Below are positions 4,558 to 35,217 of a DNA stretch of 64,000 bases, piece by piece. The position numbers and the translations under genes are program-made. A model generated the notes under the pieces. It was given only the letters and a program-made list of their open reading frames with translations, searched no databases and was not told where the DNA came from. The stretch's first letter is position 1, and the number at the start of each line of letters is the position of its first letter. The DNA comes from Dictyostelium discoideum (Eukaryota): positions 6,293,300 through 6,357,299 of the forward strand of contig CM000152.2 of NCBI GenBank assembly GCA_000004695.1, read 5' to 3'.

Positions 4558-7500
4558 ATGAATGGATGGGGAGAAAGTGACGAGATAGAAGATTTTGACC
4601 CAGAAGCAGATTTAAAACAACAACCATCACAAAAACATCAACAACAACAACAACAACAACAACAACAAAAATCATCAACAACAACAACAACCACTACAAC
4701 AACTAAAATGAATGGTCATAATAATAATAATAATGGTGGTGGTGGTGGACATAAAAGACAACTTTCATTCAATCAATTAATGGATTCTATTTCAGGTACA
4801 TTACCATTTCAATTAGATATGAATAATGGTACTAGTAATAGTAGTAGCAGTAATAGTAATAATAATAATAATAATAATAGAACCAATACACCAATTAATA
4901 GAATATTTAGTAGTACAAATAGTTTAGAAGAATTACAAAATGGTATGATGATGAATGGTGGTGGTGGACAATCAACACCACCAATAATAAATAATAATAA
5001 TAATAATATAAATGGTCTCAAACAATCACAAGATTATGGTGAAACATTAAAAGAGATGATTAAAACAATTGAAAATTATAAGAAAGAAAACTTTGATTTA
5101 AAGATGCGTATATTTTATATGGATAGTAGTTTATCGATGACTAGTGAAGAAAAAAATATGTTTCAACAAAATATTGATTTAAAAGTTCAATTGGATGAAA
5201 AAACCAAACAATTGGAAGAGAGGGATAATGTAATTGTAAAATTGGATAAAGTGAATCAAGTTTTAAAAGAGAAATTAGAAAAACAAAAACAAAAAGAAGA
5301 GAAATTAAAAAATGAAATTGATCAATTATCAAATATAATTTCAAATCAAAATGATAAAGATAAAGATAAAGATAAGAAAAATAAAGATAACCAATCATCA
5401 TCATCATTACAACAACAACCACAACTACCACAACAACAACAAGTTGTAATTCAATATACAAAAGATCCAGAAGATAAAGATAAAATCATTCAACAACATA
5501 ATATAATTGAAGAATTAAATCATAAAATTGATGGATATGATGATGAGATTAAAGATTTGAAGAATCAAATTTTAAACGCAAATCAAGAATTAAAGAATCA
5601 AAAAAAGAATAATGAAAGATCACAAAAACAATTGGAGGATTCGTTAAGGGAGCAAAGAGCTATTGAACAAGAGATATTGGATAAGAATCAGGAATTACAA
5701 TCGATAAATTTAGAATTAAAGCATAGATTGGATAGATTGAATAATGAATTGGGTGAACAGAATCAATTGGATTCTCAAGAGATTGAACAATTGGAAAAGG
5801 ATTTAAAATCTACTAGATTGAAATTGGAGCAATTGAAAGGTCATTATGAACGTTTGAAACAGCATTATGAGGAATTAAAGAAACATTATGATGAACAGTT
5901 GGACACCATTGAGCAGTTAAAAAACTCGATTTTAGCTTACGAGAATTTACTAATTGAAAAGGATCATGAGATTCAATGCATCTTTGAACAACATCAACAA
6001 GAACTAATACAAATTCAAAACGATCATCAAAAGGCACTTGCTAATAAGGTTGGTGAGATCACAGAATTGCGTTCACAAATCAAGAGAATTCGTGAAGAAT
6101 TCTATGCATCCTCATTGGAAACTCAGCATAGTCAAGCGATTCACGAAAATTATAAACAAGAGATACAAACACTCTCTATGGATATTTCTAAATTGCATCA
6201 ATCCAATCAGGATTTAGAGTTACAATTACATTCTAAAACTATTTTAATCAATGATTATGAGAGAGCGTTGAGTAATTTAGAGAATACTCATAAGGAGTTG
6301 GTTGATGATGTTCAAAAGAAATTACATGAATTTACAATTCAAGCTGATCAACATCAAAAGGAGAAAGATGATTATCGTTTAATTGCATCGGAATTGGTTG
6401 TTGTTAAAAATCAATTAAAAGAATTAAGAGTGGATTATCAAAAATTGGAACAATTAAAACAACAACAATCCGATCAACAACAACAACAATTGATTGACCA
6501 AAAACAATACCAACAACAACAATTTGAACAACAAAAACAAAAATCTGATCAAGAGAATCAACAAAAGTTAATTACTATACAAAAACAAACCTCAAAACAA
6601 TTATTAGATCAAGAAACACTATATAAACAACAATTGGATAAATTGGAGGATACTTATCTATCGAAATTGAATAATCAAAATTCAAATAATCATCAAAAAA
6701 CTGAAACTTTTATTAAAGAGATGAAAGAGAATTATCAACAACTTCATCAAAAGAATATTTTAAATTTCTCAACAACTTTGATAACTATATTATCAACTAT
6801 TTCAAATACATTAATACCTTCAGTTTTGGCTAATCAACAACAACAGCAATTGCTATTCGATGAGAAGGAAGATCTACAAAATTATATTAAAAAATTAAAT
6901 AATAATATCAATGATTCAACAATAACTGATCTTCAAGAATTAATTTCATTAAAGATTGAAGAATGTAAACAATTGAATCAACGTGAATTTGATAATGGTC
7001 TTGTTAAAATTGAGAATGATTTCAATCAACGTTATCAACAATTATCAATACTATTGGATGAGAAATCAATGTTATTGGATCAATTGGAGACACAATTGGT
7101 CGAGGCTAAACAATTGACAACTCAAAATCAATTGATTGGTCAAGAACAACTTCAACAACAATATCAACAACATTTACAAACTTTTAAACTTCAAATTCAA
7201 CAACTTCAAGATCAACTCATTCAAAATAGAAGACAATATCAACAATCATTTGATGATCAAGTTAAACAACTCTCTCAATTTAATCTTGAAAATAAACATT
7301 TAGATCAATCAAATAAACAATTACAACAAAAGTTACAACAACAAATTACAATTTTAAATCAACAACATCAAATGGAATTACAACAACAATATCAACAATA
7401 TCAAAGAGAAATTTATCAAATTCAACAACAATTTAAAAATTTAAATAAATTAAATAATAATAATTCAACTACTACAACAACAACAACTTCATCATCATCC

Positions 7501-29956: not shown

Positions 29957-30300
29957 TTTTATTTTCTTTTTTATTTTTTTAATTATTATTATTTATTTAA
30001 ATGATTTTAAAAAAAAAACAAAAAAAAAAAAAATGTGTGCATAAAACGAAAAAAAAAAACAAAAAAAAAACAAAAAAAAAAACAATTTCTTGGGAAGACA
30101 TTTGGAATTGATAAATTCTCAAGATTTTTTTTTTTTTTTTTTAAAAATATCTTTTTTTTATGCACTTTTAACACAAAAAATAAAAAAAATTTTCACATTT
30201 TTTAATATTAAAAAAAAAAAAAAATTTCAAAAAAAAAATAAAAAAAATAAAAAAAAAATAAAAAAAATAATTAAAACAGTTTTATTGATTGTAAATTGAT

Positions 30301-31975
30301 TTATTGTAATTCTTTTAATTCATGAAATTGAAAAATGAGGGATTCAACAAATTTATTTATTGTTTGAATTATTTCCGGAGGTTGATTTTCTGGATTTTTA
30401 CATTCTAATTCCATTTCATGATATTCACGGTGCAGAGAATATGAATTTAGTATTAAATCAAACAAACCACCTAATATAAATAATTTAGTATATGAGTGGG
30501 AAGAGCTACCTCTAATTGTAGCATAGTAACGTTTGTCTGTGATGTCTACAAGGTTGTACCAGAAAATATATTGATCATGAATCATTTGGGAACGATTCTG
30601 ATGAGTACCAATAACTTTTATTTTTAAATCTTGTAGTTCCTTCTTGGAATAATTTTTGTTTTTATCATATATCCCACCATCTTGAGTGCTATCCAATGGT
30701 TCTAATATTTTTTTAATTTTGTCGTTTTTGTTAAGATTGTTGTTTTCTTTTTTGTATTTATCATTATATATTTGAGCTATGTGTTCAGCTGATAATTTCT
30801 TCAACATTTGTTCGTTCCAAAAAGGACCACATGGTGGTTTTACAAAGTTAGTTTTATATTTGTCATTTAATATTTCCAATGTTGTCCCATGCAATGTCTC
30901 ACCAACAAAAATTAGTTCTAATTCTTTTTTTGAAAAACGAAATAAATTTCCAATAGTTGCAAATTGTTCTATATTTAGATTATTATTAATTTCCACATAT
31001 GGGTTTGAATATCTTGAATATAGATTTGTTGCAATGCAATTGATATGACCAGCGGTATTTTTGGTATACTCGTACAATAGTCCTGTGCTTTCATCATAAA
31101 AAAGGAATGTTTTATGTATGGTTAATAAAGGTTTGACGAATATTTTATTTCTTGAGGAACAGTCACGCCACTCTTCCTTGTTGAGGATAAAATACGACAT
31201 TTCAATTCATCTAAACATTCTTTATTATTTACTAATGCAAAGGCACTATCGCAACATACGATTAAGTTATTCCTTGGATCCTCCCAATTATATTTTGAAT
31301 GTAAATTATCCAAAAGGGTTTTTAATGAATTGAAAGGAGATTGACAGTTTTCTGGTGTTCTTGGACCATAACTAATTACATATGGACAATTACTAATATT
31401 CAATTTGGTTGTTAGACTATATGCTTCAATTCCGACTGAATGGGGTTTGCTATCATTATTAATCAATATATGATCTTTCCCATAATATGCGTATATTGTT
31501 TCATCACAATTGAGAACGTTACCAATATTAATATATTTCAATGCACTGTTCATAAATATTTCACAATACTCTTCAAATCTATGACTTTTCATATCCAAAA
31601 CATTATGTACTGCTGAATATCTATTGTGATCCATCATTTTTAAATTAATTCAGGTGGTATCTTATCATTGTTTTTATTTGAATAAATATTTTTTAAATAA
31701 TCAGTTATAAATTTCCAGAATGTAATATCGGTTAAATCATTTAATCTTGAAATATCCTTCCCTTTATCTAATTTTTTCTCCCTCTCATGTCTAAGATTTG
31801 TATTAATTAATGAAATTAAAAATTTTGATAAATCTTCATTTAATAACAATTTAAAAAAAAATAATTCATTATAAACCTGACCATTATTTTCACTTTCAAT
31901 CTTTTCTCTATTTATTGATGATTTTCTTGGTGTAGTGTTTTCAACAATTTCGCTATAATTAATTGGTCATACTTT
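30301..31975 (-). mobile_element. piggyBac-type (DDE_Tnp_1_7) transposase, near full length at about 555 codons, split into three ORFs by two 1-nt frameshifts. It lacks the C-terminal Cys-rich domain. It is either a domesticated gene or a recent pseudogene.
   Basis: Collinear with piggyBac transposase: 'VYNELFFFKLLLNEDLSKFLIS' matches 'LLCFKLFFTDEIISEIV'. 'RFEEYCEIFMNSALKYINIGNVLNCDETIYAYYGK..INNDSKPHSVGIEAYSL..PYVISYGPRT' matches 'VRKIWDLFIHQCIQNY.PGAHLTIDEQLLGFRGR..IPNKPSKYGIKILMM..GMPYLGRGT'. 'IVCCDSAFAL' matches 'ITCDNWFTS' (second Asp). 'YYATIRGSSSHSYTKLFILGGLFDLILNSYSLH' matches 'SRKTNRWPMALLYGMINIACINSFIIY'. The frame changes lie at the A5 run in TTTAAAAATG (about 31638) and in 'GAAATAAAATATT' (about 31150). 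Confidence 0.7.
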
Positions 31976-32270
31976 ATTATTAAAAATAGAATGGTTAAAT
32001 GTTCAATAAAAAAAAAAAAAAAAAAAAAATACACACACTTTCATTTTAATATTTGTTTTCGAAAATAAATATCTGAATTTTTATTAATTTTTTTTTTTTT
32101 TTTTAATTTTTTAAGGTGTAAAAAAATGTGAAAAATTTTTTTATTTTTTGTCAAAAAGTTTTAAATTTTTTAAAATAAAATGAAATGAAATAAAATAAAA
32201 TAAAAAAAGTTTTAAATTAATAAAAAAAATACTTATAATATATTTATTATTTAATTTTATAAAATTGAGT

Positions 32271-35217
32271 CTAACTTCTAGATGACCTTGAGGATGTTAC
32301 CGTGGTTGATGGTTTTTGGAATTTTCTTTCTCTTTCTCTAATTTTTTCTTTTTCTCTTTCAATTTCTTTTTGTTTTTCAGCTTCTTTTTCTTTTTGTTTA
32401 ATTACTTTTTCATTTTCCCGATTCATTCTTTCAGATTTACTCATCATAGATTGTGATGGTGTTGATGAGGAAGAGGAAGAAGAAGGGGATACATTTGAAG
32501 ATTTTGAAGAGGATCTACCACTTTGTTCTCTTTCATTTCTTGTTGAGGATTTATCTGAATCTCTTTCATTATTCGATGATGTTGAAGATGATGTTGTTGA
32601 GTCTTTTGAATCTTCTTTCTTTCTTGATGATGATGATGATGATGATGGTTCACTTCTTTGTGATTCATCTTTTTTATTTGAATCTCTAGTTCTAGTGTTT
32701 TCATTTTTATCTGATCTATCTCTACTATTGGTAGAGGTTGAGGATGAGTCTCTGTCTCTGTTATCAGAGGTTTCTTTTCTGGCATTTGATGAGGTATCTC
32801 TATCTCTATCTCTATCTCTGTCCCTGTTGCCACTACCACTTGATGAGTATGAATGATCAGAATCTTTTCTACCACCACTACTTGATTGATTACTATCTGA
32901 TGCTCTATCCTTACTTTCTCGTTTACTTCCACTAGTTGTTGAAGAATAATCCCTATTTTCTCTATCTCTATTTGAGTCGCTTTTACTTGATGGATAAGAG
33001 TCATTCTCTCTTTTACCACTACCACTTGAGGATGATGTTTCTCTATCTCTTGTTGAATCTCTATCGTAATGATCTCTAGAACTTCTATTATCTGATCTAT
33101 CATCTCTTTCTTTATCTCTTGTACTTTCGCTTCTTCTGTCGGATGATCTATCTCTATCTCTTTCTCTATCCCTATCTCTGTCTCTATCTCTTCTGCTGCT
33201 GCTGCTACTGTCATGGTCATCCCTATCTCTGTCTCTTCTACTGCTGCTGCTGCTATCATGATCATCCCTATCTCTATCTCTTCTGCTGCTACTGTTACTG
33301 TTGCTATCATGATCATCCCTATCTCTTCGGCTGCTACCACTGTTACTGCTGCTACCACTGTCATGATCATCTCTATCTCTTCTGTTGCTGCTACCACTAT
33401 CATGATCATCTCTATCTCTTCTGTTGCTGCTGTTGTTACCACTATCATGATCATCTCTATCTCTTCTGCTGCTACCACTATCATGGTCATCTCTATCTCT
33501 ATCCCTGTCTCTTCTATCATAGTCATCTCTATCTCTATCTCTGTCTCTTCTATTATCGTAGTCATCTCTTTCCCTTCTTTCTCTATCTCTTTCTCTATCT
33601 CTTTCTCTTTCTCTTTCATCGACATCGTCATCTCTTTTTCTCTTTTCACCATGATAATCACCACCGTATCTGTCAGGTGAACTACCACCACTTGACCATT
33701 CATCTCTTTTTGATGAGGAATAAGGTCTACCACCACCACTACCACTGCCGCCGCTGCCGACACTACTACCACTACCGCCGCTACCATTTGGGGGTGGTGG
33801 ACCACCTTGATAAAAGTAAGGAGGAGGTGGACCGCCAATCATATTTGGAGGTGGTGCACCCCCTCTACCCATATAACCTCCTCTACCACTTGACATTGTA
33901 GCTCCATATGGAGGAGGTGGGAAAGGTGAACCTCTACCACCTCGACCCATATAACCTCCTCTCATTGGTGGAGAATAAAACTCTGGTTGCATTCCAATGG
34001 GTGGTGGTGGACCACCTCTACCACCTCTCATTGAAGCACCTACTGATCTCTTACCACCTCTACCACCTCTTGAATATGGATCAGCATAACCATATGGTGG
34101 TTGTTGTTGCTGTTGTTGTGGTGGTTGTTGATATGGATAAGGCATACCACCAAAATGTGGATGTGAACCACCACCACCACTGCCATTAACACCACCTCCA
34201 TTACCACCATGTTGTGAATTTGACAATGATGATGATGATAAAGATGATTGATGATGAATATTATTTGCAATATTACCACTATTTGTATTATTATTATTAT
34301 TATTATTATGAGAGTTTGAAGAAGAATTTAAATGTTGTTGATTCGATTGATTTGATTGACCTAAACTAATATTCTTAATGGTAGTAAGAGCATTATGATA
34401 ATTTTGTTGAGAAAGTAAACGAATTGTCATCTCTTTACCATTGATTTCTTTTTTCTCAGTTTTTGATTTTGCAAGTTGAGCTTGTTCAATATGTTCAAAC
34501 TCTACAAATGCATAACCTTTTGATTTACCATTATTTTCATTTTCAAAGATCTTTAATGTAACAATCTTTCCAAACTCTAAAAATACATTTTCAAGTTGTT
34601 GGTCAGTTGTCCACCATTCTAATCCACTAATATACAATGCTGGTGATAAATCAGTAGTATCAGTAATTGTCGTTGTTGTTGTTGTTGATGATGATTCTCC
34701 TGATACTGTAGATGATGATCCATTATTTGTTCTATTATTGTTATTATTGTTATTGTTATTTGATGTTGAATTTTGATCATTTTCATCATATGTTCCTAAT
34801 ATATTCTTTATATATATATAAAATGTAATTCAAAAAAATTAGAAAATTAATAATTTTAAAATTAAATAAAATAAAAATAAATTATGTAGTTACATCATCA
34901 TCATTTTCATCATAAGATTTTTCATCTTCAATTAATCTTATACTGTGAGTATTTTCTGTATCATCATCCATATTACTAGCACTTCTTCTTGATTTATTAT
35001 TATTATTATCATCTTCATCTTCATCATCATCTCTACGTGATGATCCATAATTACTATCACTATCTTCATGATTATTCGATTCACTACGTGTATTCATAGT
35101 TTCATCATTTTCATTTCTGTTTCTATATTTATTATCTTCTATTTCATCTTCTCCAAGTTCATCTTCTGTATGTTTCTTTTCATCTTTAAAGTCTCCATAT
35201 ATATCATAATCTTCCAT
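32271..35217 (-). CDS. CFIm68/CPSF6-family cleavage-factor subunit homologue of about 952 aa, exons 35217..34894 and 34805..32271.
   Basis: Exon 1 'MEDYDIYGDFKDEKKH..' matches the CPSF6 N-terminus 'DHIDIYADVGEEF'. Donor GAT|GTAACT at 34893, acceptor ATAAAG| at 34806 (88-nt intron, phase 0). The RRM 'ALYISGLEWWTTDQQLENVF..LKIFENENNGKSKGYAFVEF' matches the CPSF6 'ALYIGNLTWWTTDEDL..IKFFENRANGQSKGFALV'. A Gly/Pro-rich centre (GGPPPP, RGG) is followed by a very long RDRDRDDHDSGSS/RS-like repeat tail and a lysine/glutamate-rich C-terminus. The 'M' at 34637 in the ORF track is a TTG inside the RRM. Confidence 0.75.

Follow-up and report, generated by a model that had tools for sequence, protein, structure and literature searches.

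This study analyzed a 64,000-nt stretch of Dictyostelium discoideum DNA, hereafter the window, in which a long frame at 30301 to about 31975 had been read from the letters alone (the sequence-only reading) as a near-intact and possibly domesticated piggyBac-derived gene. All coordinates are positions within this window, and the SslA locus lies on its minus strand. By its sequence, the feature at 30161-32152 (-) corresponds to sslA2, an annotated D. discoideum gene that is paralogous to sslA1 ("suppressor of smlA"). We consider it about 85% probable that sslA2 is a copy of a cut-and-paste DNA transposon of the piggyBac superfamily, approximately 2.26 kb long, whose intact copies are annotated as sslA1, and that this copy inserted recently and is already inactivated. 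We favored a mobile element because the terminal inverted repeats (TIRs) are conserved, near-identical copies occupy non-syntenic loci, one defective copy occurs at three loci, the copy number varies, and the window copy is polymorphic in presence or absence.

Homology among the paralogous SslA loci ran past the open reading frame (ORF) and ended abruptly at the same points, with unrelated flanks immediately outside. We aligned first 12 and then 15 element ends from 9 copies. TIRs of ~43 bp were found at all SslA copies compared; every 5' end was YTGACTTTTAACACAAAAAATAAAAAAAWTTTTCACATTTTTT, and every 3' end was its reverse complement. The 29-nt core of the repeat occurred exactly twice in the window, in inverted orientation, at 30175-30203 and 32121-32149 (0.01 chance matches expected). 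These two sites enclose the ORF for which no obvious inverted repeats had previously been noticed; the TTAA-flanked pattern that had been sought was indeed not seen. Intact SslA elements measured 2,259-2,266 bp and carried a single gene with one intron and a 605-aa product. Two D. discoideum copies on different chromosomes (L001 and L006) were 99.91% identical, differing at 2 of 2,263 aligned bases, and three D. cf. discoideum loci with unrelated flanks (L011, L012, and L013) held the same defective copy at 99.8-99.9% identity. The number of SslA copies varied among assemblies.

The window locus was then compared with the orthologues of its neighbor genes in D. discoideum strains ACTFIW and ACTFIR and in D. 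cf. discoideum (loci L008, L009, and L010). The spacing from the RRM-protein gene to the Cys/Met-PLP gene was about 300 bp in all three comparison loci versus about 2.3 kb in the window, and no SslA sequence lay between the two genes in L008, L009, or L010. The window sslA2 copy is an insertion polymorphism: neither the two other strains nor D. cf. discoideum carry it at the orthologous site. An exact-protein match for the neighbor gene was obtained from the same assembly only, and that comparison yielded no empty site. Taken together, the near-identical dispersed copies and the insertion polymorphism point to very recent activity of a mobile element in both D. discoideum and D. cf. discoideum.

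The flanks of the copies indicated the target site. TAA stood at the end of the 5' flank in 4 of 6 copies and at the start of the 3' flank in 7 of 8, and these flanking TAAs behave as a target duplication because they form a direct, not an inverted, repeat. The element flanks fit an apparent 3-bp TAA target duplication, not TTAA. In the flanks of the compared copies, TTAA was not seen outside the element ends, and the 3' flank never began with TTAA; instead, each TIR contained an internal TTAA, 7 nt in from the element end. We ruled out a TTAA duplication with termini CAC...GTG, given that the 7-nt sequence on the outer side of this TTAA (YTGACTT) was conserved in every independent copy, at the 5' and the 3' end alike, and hence belongs to the element. 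A 2-bp TA duplication, which fitted only one of six copies, was also ruled out.

At the junction, the empty sites read ...AAACTTTT-TAA-AAAA... (CTTTT-TAA-AAAA). The window 3' junction, GTGCA joined to TAAAAAAAAG..., is compatible with insertion at this TAA. The window 5' junction was rearranged at an ACTTTT microhomology, and the comparison of the occupied and empty window site gave no clean target duplication; because of this rearrangement, the window locus alone cannot prove the TAA duplication. A host segment of ~19 nt next to the 3' end of the element (TAAAAAAAAGATATTTTT; window 30125-30160) was inverted at the D. cf. discoideum empty site (AAAAATATCTTTTTTTTAT; L010:~5765-5800) and was not present at the empty sites of the two D. 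discoideum strains, which suggests that a small rearrangement may have accompanied the sslA2 insertion.

Sequence profiles and the predicted fold indicate that SslA is a very divergent, putative piggyBac-type DDE transposase without a Cys-rich domain. We searched 1.84 billion representatives with an SslA-protein profile and recovered 46 relatives at E<=1e-3. The best matches from other dictyostelids came from Synstelium polycarpum (1.8e-27) and Tieghemostelium lacteum (DLAC_11814, 3.9e-27), the latter carrying the UniRef name PiggyBac-derived domain protein. The Pfam model PF13843 (DDE_Tnp_1_7) was matched independently by 18 of 42 SslA relatives, and two of them, P0023 (27.1 bits; E 3.9e-27 to SslA) and P0025 (38.7 bits; 1.2e-17), were above the Pfam cut-off of 22.4 bits. 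The same model matched none of the three window pieces, the stitched 554-aa translation, or intact SslA1 and SslA2, even at E<=10. The PF13843 check proposed with the sequence-only reading thus gave a split result, with relatives above the cut-off and no direct match; dropping piggyBac on the latter result would have been wrong.

A broadened profile of 42 sequences, searched against the whole PDB, retrieved the piggyBac transposase 6x67 as the top match (E 3.7e-8) in two collinear stretches, the second of which spanned the third catalytic Asp (piggyBac GGVD447TLDQ; HMMER). With hhalign, the broadened profile aligned to a piggyBac sequence, validated beforehand (Pfam, 240 bits; against 6x67, 1366 bits), over 223 columns with a probability of 95.2% and an E value of 2.7e-8. 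The conserved blocks that had originally been named were collinear with piggyBac in both the hhalign and the HMMER alignments: YNELFFFKLLLNEDLSKF aligned with piggyBac LFFTDEIISEIV, NCDET with TIDEQ (D268), CCDSAF with TCDNWF (D346), and LVDITD...LNSYSLH with GGVDTLDQ...INSFIIY. Residues D201, D290, and D525 of SslA1 align with piggyBac D268, D346, and D447. The conservation of these three Asp residues, which had been put forward as a check, was confirmed in 42 of 42, 42 of 42, and 31 of 31 sequences, and their codons are still present in the window copy.

AlphaFold2 produced an unusable model of SslA1 from a 5-sequence alignment (predicted local distance difference test score, pLDDT, 33) and a confident model with a pLDDT of 87.1 and a predicted template modeling score of 0.78 from a deeper alignment. 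In a Foldseek search with this model, piggyBac and piggyBat ranked first (1.2e-10), and piggyBac was the best match in the whole PDB by the sequence profile and by two structure-comparison methods. The modeled fold is of piggyBac type, with an N-terminal domain and an RNase-H catalytic core carrying an insertion domain. The spacing between the second and third Asp (D2-D3) was 235 aa in SslA versus 101 aa in piggyBac. As had been noted at the outset, a Cys-rich C-terminus was missing: SslA and 10 relatives had 0-3 Cys in the last 70 residues, and the model ended in helices.

The enlarged D2-D3 insertion (SslA1 residues 312-416; window approx. 30870-31180, minus strand) gave a marginal profile match to a "nicking endonuclease" (PDB 9qgv, 148 aa; E 0.0012). 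This was the only match of a PDB search with the shallow SslA profile, and the Cys/His positions of 9qgv were not conserved in SslA.

The window feature was assigned to sslA2 because the SslA2 protein (P0019) matches the locus in detail. P0019 reproduced the window locus exactly: its first codon is the ATG at 31637-31635, just downstream of a 4-bp deletion; it carries a window-specific 12-bp deletion; and it switches the window frame around the site of a 1-bp deletion, passing from ...DSAFAL to WRDCSSRNKIFVKPLL. In a search against 5.8 billion proteins, only five 90%-identity clusters matched, all of them from D. discoideum or D. cf. discoideum; the names inside these clusters were SslA1 "suppressor of smlA" (SSLA1_DICDI; two AX4 loci) and SslA2 (ABS29555.1 / B0M0P4). 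The ORF adjoining sslA2 was 100% identical to DDB_G0282867 of D. discoideum strain AX4.

To map the lesions of sslA2, the window was aligned with the paralogous loci L001 and L002, with the intact 605-aa copy L006, and with L003, the same locus in an independent chromosome-level assembly (GCA_054883475.1) that was 99.5% identical to the window over 8 kb. The long piggyBac-collinear frame of the sequence-only reading proved real, with three frame segments on the minus strand, from 30301 to about 31975, that together read as one long protein. The breaks it had placed near 31638 and 31150 were located at 31645-31651 and 31148-31151. Relative to L006, the first is a 4-bp deletion within an (AATT)2 repeat and the second a 1-bp deletion. 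Introns were ruled out as the cause of both breaks: compared with intact copies, 4 bp and 1 bp are lost at the junctions, which leaves no room for an intron. The description "broken only by two single-nucleotide frameshifts" also had to be extended by a 246-bp deletion, a TGA stop, a 12-bp deletion, and the loss of part of the 5' TIR. Besides these lesions, sslA2 differed from L006 by only about 9 substitutions in ~2 kb. Every lesion was present identically in L003; the lesions are therefore not sequencing errors. By these marks the sslA2 copy is young but dead, and the "very young pseudogene" that had been offered as an alternative was essentially right. The features of the window copy are as follows.

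30161-32152 (-): whole remnant element, the sslA2 copy of the putative SslA transposon; 1,992 bp versus 2,259-2,266 bp when intact. Homology to paralogous loci (L001, L006, and others) begins and ends here, the flanks are unrelated, and this DNA is absent at the orthologous site in L008, L009, and L010.
30158-30160 (-): TAA directly outside the 3' TIR, presumed copy of the target-site duplication, from the flank comparison and the empty sites.
30161-30203 (-): 3' TIR, from exact 25-mer and 29-mer matches, from 12 aligned element ends, and from the tabulated termini; it reads TGCACTTTTAACACAAAAAATAAAAAAAATTTTCACATTTTTT on the plus strand, and its outermost 5 nt deviate from the canonical CTGAC.
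30301-31148 (-): C-terminal ORF segment, with the stop codon at 30303-30301 and the third catalytic Asp codon at 30546-30544 (LVDITD).
31148-31151 (-): 1-bp deletion causing the second frameshift, GAAATTAAAAT to GAAATAAAAT, from the alignment with L001, L002, and L006.
31152-31644 (-): middle ORF segment, containing the start codon of the SslA2 model (ATG, 31637-31635), Asp codons at 31505-31503 (NCDET) and 31250-31248 (CCDSAF), and, near 31479, the in-frame deletion of 12 bp.
31171-31232 (-): 62-nt GT..AG segment, the "intron" of the GenBank SslA2 model (ABS29555.1, 424 aa), from the jump in P0019; it is coding in intact copies.
31645-31651 (-): 4-bp deletion causing the first frameshift, AATTAATT to AATT; intact copies read PPELINLKMMDH.
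31652-31966 (-): N-terminal ORF segment, containing the block YNELFFFKLLLNEDLSKF, homologous to the piggyBac N-terminal domain.
31967-31969 (-): premature TGA stop, gta tga cca versus gtt aga cca in intact copies.
31987-31988 (-): junction of the 246-bp deletion, which took out the start codon, exon 1, the GTATGT..AG intron, and the beginning of exon 2.
32113-32152 (-): 5' TIR with an intact inner part; its outer 12 bp (TTGACTTTTAAC) have been lost or rearranged at the ACTTTT microhomology with the host flank.

In the favored explanation, the SslA1 transposase would comprise an N-terminal piggyBac-like domain, an RNase-H-fold DDD core (D201, D290, and D525), and an enlarged D2-D3 insertion, and the element would move by DDD-catalyzed excision and by integration at TAA sites, producing a 3-bp duplication. 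The sslA2 copy would no longer make a transposase because its start codon and exon 1 are gone and because it contains a stop codon and two frameshifts; it is probably not mobilizable either because its 5' TIR is truncated.

The principal alternative for the family is that of a domesticated piggyBac-derived host gene, in which SslA would be immobile and would serve group-size control, with sslA2 a paralogue of the host gene. Passages of PMC4931340 (citing Gao et al. 2007) that place SslA1 in counting-factor secretion or processing and list it as developmentally essential would favor this explanation. The missing Cys-rich domain and the presence of a host-like intron also agree with it, as does the purifying selection on the ORF (ratio of nonsynonymous to synonymous substitution rates, dN/dS, 0.14 at a dS of 0.72; L006 versus L002). 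However, an active transposase would likewise be expected to evolve under such selection and to keep its Asp triad intact, and the dN/dS value fits a transposon and a domesticated gene alike. A domesticated gene would be expected as a fixed, syntenic, single locus without TIRs. We found instead that TIRs were conserved at every SslA copy, that the neighbors differed at every locus and the copies lay at different, non-syntenic positions in every assembly sampled, and that the identity of 99.8-99.9% among copies included the non-coding ends. Moreover, one defective copy had spread to three loci, the window copy was missing at the orthologous site in two strains and the sister species and was riddled with lesions, and an SslA1-type protein was not recovered from strains ACTFIW or ACTFIR except for one subfamily copy of 78% identity. 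Multiple identical copies with TIRs had been named in advance as the result that would speak for a transposon; near-identical copies with TIRs were found at unrelated loci, and we consider domestication to have little chance of being correct. Improbable as well is the proposal that sslA2 still encodes a functional truncated protein, an SslA-like regulator or a transposase-derived inhibitor, in the form of the 424-aa GenBank model (ATG 31637, with 31232-31171 spliced out). GenBank ABS29555.1 (B0M0P4) is exactly that product, GT and AG dinucleotides stand at the proposed splice sites, and the downstream frame is open for 299 codons. The proposed intron is, however, coding sequence in intact copies, and its GC content of about 28% is well above that of an AT-rich genuine intron. 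The NCBI model of the locus, from a second annotation pipeline (P0003), bridges the frameshift with a different skip than P0019, which suggests that both are modeling devices. The product would also lack the N-terminal ~180 residues and the segment right after the second catalytic Asp, and the locus is absent in other strains.

The two remaining explanations concern the data and the homology themselves. Homopolymer sequencing errors in an otherwise intact gene would agree with a 1-bp deletion within an A/T-rich run. This option, raised with the sequence-only reading, is excluded for practical purposes, as the same 4-bp, 1-bp, 12-bp, and 246-bp deletions and the TGA stop appear in the independent assembly L003, the lesions are mirrored in GenBank SslA2, and homopolymer errors do not account for a 246-bp deletion or a two-base substitution. 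It is very improbable that SslA is unrelated to piggyBac and that the motif likeness arose by chance in an AT-rich, low-complexity proteome. The unmatched PF13843 model and the probability of 0.1% that hhalign gave for the shallow SslA profile against piggyBac would favor chance. Nevertheless, bridging sequences exceed the Pfam cut-off, the sequence profile and both structure-comparison methods rank piggyBac first in the PDB, and the three catalytic Asp columns are invariant.

Several results weigh against the interpretation of SslA as a recently active piggyBac-superfamily transposon. Pfam and PDB sequence searches with SslA alone were negative, and the homology is transitive, drawn from profile and structural evidence; the alignment behind the AlphaFold2 model included piggyBac-domain relatives, so that the model is not fully independent. 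The TAA/TAA pair was perfect in only three of the six complete copies and one base off in the remaining three, and no clean occupied/empty pair was obtained for an undamaged copy. Transposition itself was never observed, and activity is inferred. The group-size role of SslA (Gao et al. 2007, by title) is also not predicted by a purely selfish element. The passages of PMC4931340 that cite Gao et al. 2007 describe SslA1 as regulating the secretion or processing of counting factor and SslA as "a novel protein" in group-size regulation, and its list gives sslA1 as developmentally essential, of unknown molecular function, and found only in D. discoideum. We tentatively propose, at less than even odds, that this "novel" group-size protein is a transposase, encoded by a Pfam-invisible piggyBac-superfamily transposon that is active now or was so very recently, lacks a Cys-rich domain, and has TAA targets. 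In that case, either the counting-factor pathway would receive input from a transposon protein, or the antisense phenotype in the literature would stem from transposon biology and not from a dedicated host gene.

Among known systems, SslA most resembles piggyBac (Trichoplusia ni, abbreviated T. ni; PDB 6x67), piggyBat (PDB 9c0f), and the family described by PF13843, with which it shares a collinear N-terminal domain and catalytic core and the DDD triad (D268, D346, and D447). Also shared with piggyBac are an insertion domain in the D2-D3 interval and the TIR-bounded, single-gene organization in 2-2.5 kb. SslA differs in that its identity to piggyBac is about 12-15% and the Pfam model is blind to it, in that it has no C-terminal Cys-rich (PHD-like) DNA-binding domain, and in that its flanks point to a 3-bp TAA duplication versus TTAA; its TIRs begin with YTGAC, unlike the CCY of piggyBac (CCC...GGG ends). 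Domesticated piggyBac-derived genes (PGBD1-5; ciliate PiggyMac and Tpb2) are single and syntenic and have no TIRs. SslA is like them in its predicted piggyBac-derived protein, its retained Asp triad, and its reported host phenotype (the human and ciliate side being general knowledge), whereas its copies have kept their TIRs, vary in number and position among strains, and are 99.9% identical between loci.

PIF/Harbinger elements have a 3-bp, TWA-type target duplication, which resembles the apparent TAA duplication of SslA. The SslA protein, however, is predicted to have a piggyBac/IS4 fold and not the DDE_Tnp_4 fold, and the 2.26-kb SslA unit contains no Myb-like second ORF. A Harbinger-type DDE_Tnp_4 ORF adjoined SslA copies twice, at P0014 (D. 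cf. discoideum, 20.6-kb contig) and at L005:8749-10045, and in one case the gene prediction had fused both ORFs (PF13359, E 8e-19). This adjacency may reflect a functional link or plain clustering of transposable elements. The D. discoideum DNA transposons Tdd, DDT, and thug share the genome with SslA and are also low-copy; the SslA genes are instead annotated as ordinary host genes. The SslA element may be one of these catalogued repeats (thug, DDT, Tdd) under another name, as it was set apart from them by annotation. According to a review (PMC5633606), the transposases of D. discoideum DNA transposons show no significant similarity to known transposases, and in the words of a 2026 preprint piggyBac is "not reported in D. 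discoideum."

Further observations concerned individual copies and the surroundings of sslA2. At L007:4790-4840, an SslA 5' TIR abutted an inverted solo TIR end of ~22 nt, forming a perfect palindrome of GTGTTAAAAGTCAA and TTGACTTTTAACAC, which might have been left by aberrant transposition or by hairpin repair. L001 (~6330-6450) contained a run of 7 A versus 6 A in L006 (GGGAGAAAAAA[A]TTAG); in GenBank SslA1 AAM34288.2 (571 aa) and in P0001, the frame is restored by a GT..AG "intron" that skips the conserved N-terminal block YNELFFFKLLLNEDLSKF...; this "intron" is either genuine alternative splicing or a device of the annotation. Outside the 5' TIR, a stretch of about 100 bp (window 32155-32261) was roughly 70% similar to L001:5693-5811 and was not similar to L006; low-complexity, AT-rich likeness could explain this, as could a preferred target context common to both loci. 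At about 20-25% GC, the window is very AT-rich; it has no tRNA genes and, by tblastn, encodes no second copy of the SslA protein elsewhere. The upstream neighbor at 32271-34637 (-) encodes a long protein of RRM type that contains extensive low-complexity repeats (RDRD/SSS; 788-aa ORF in the window, 952-964 aa in gene models), and only about 120 bp separate its stop codon from the 5' end of the element. A 187-aa SslA fragment (P0021; ACTFIT_002572, 3.6-Mb contig; E 2.7e-108) represents a fourth SslA-derived locus in that D. discoideum assembly.

The window feature is an already annotated gene. We found no paper linking SslA with transposases, so the transposase reading of SslA seems to be unreported. 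The window copy itself is biologically ordinary, appearing to be a dead, strain-polymorphic insertion. In the transposon reading, sslA1 and sslA2, treated for almost 20 years as an orphan family of developmental regulators, would be reinterpreted as copies of a mobile element. Strains differ in which SslA copies they carry and where. The reinterpretation bears on the reading of antisense and knock-down phenotypes and on strain comparisons, and the "developmentally essential, D. discoideum-specific" class in which the list in PMC4931340 places sslA1 would be affected. SslA would also add a divergent piggyBac-superfamily lineage to a genome in which piggyBac is said to be unreported. This lineage departs from the canonical family twice, in the lack of the Cys-rich domain and in the apparent 3-bp TAA duplication, and both departures bear on end recognition and target choice in the piggyBac superfamily.

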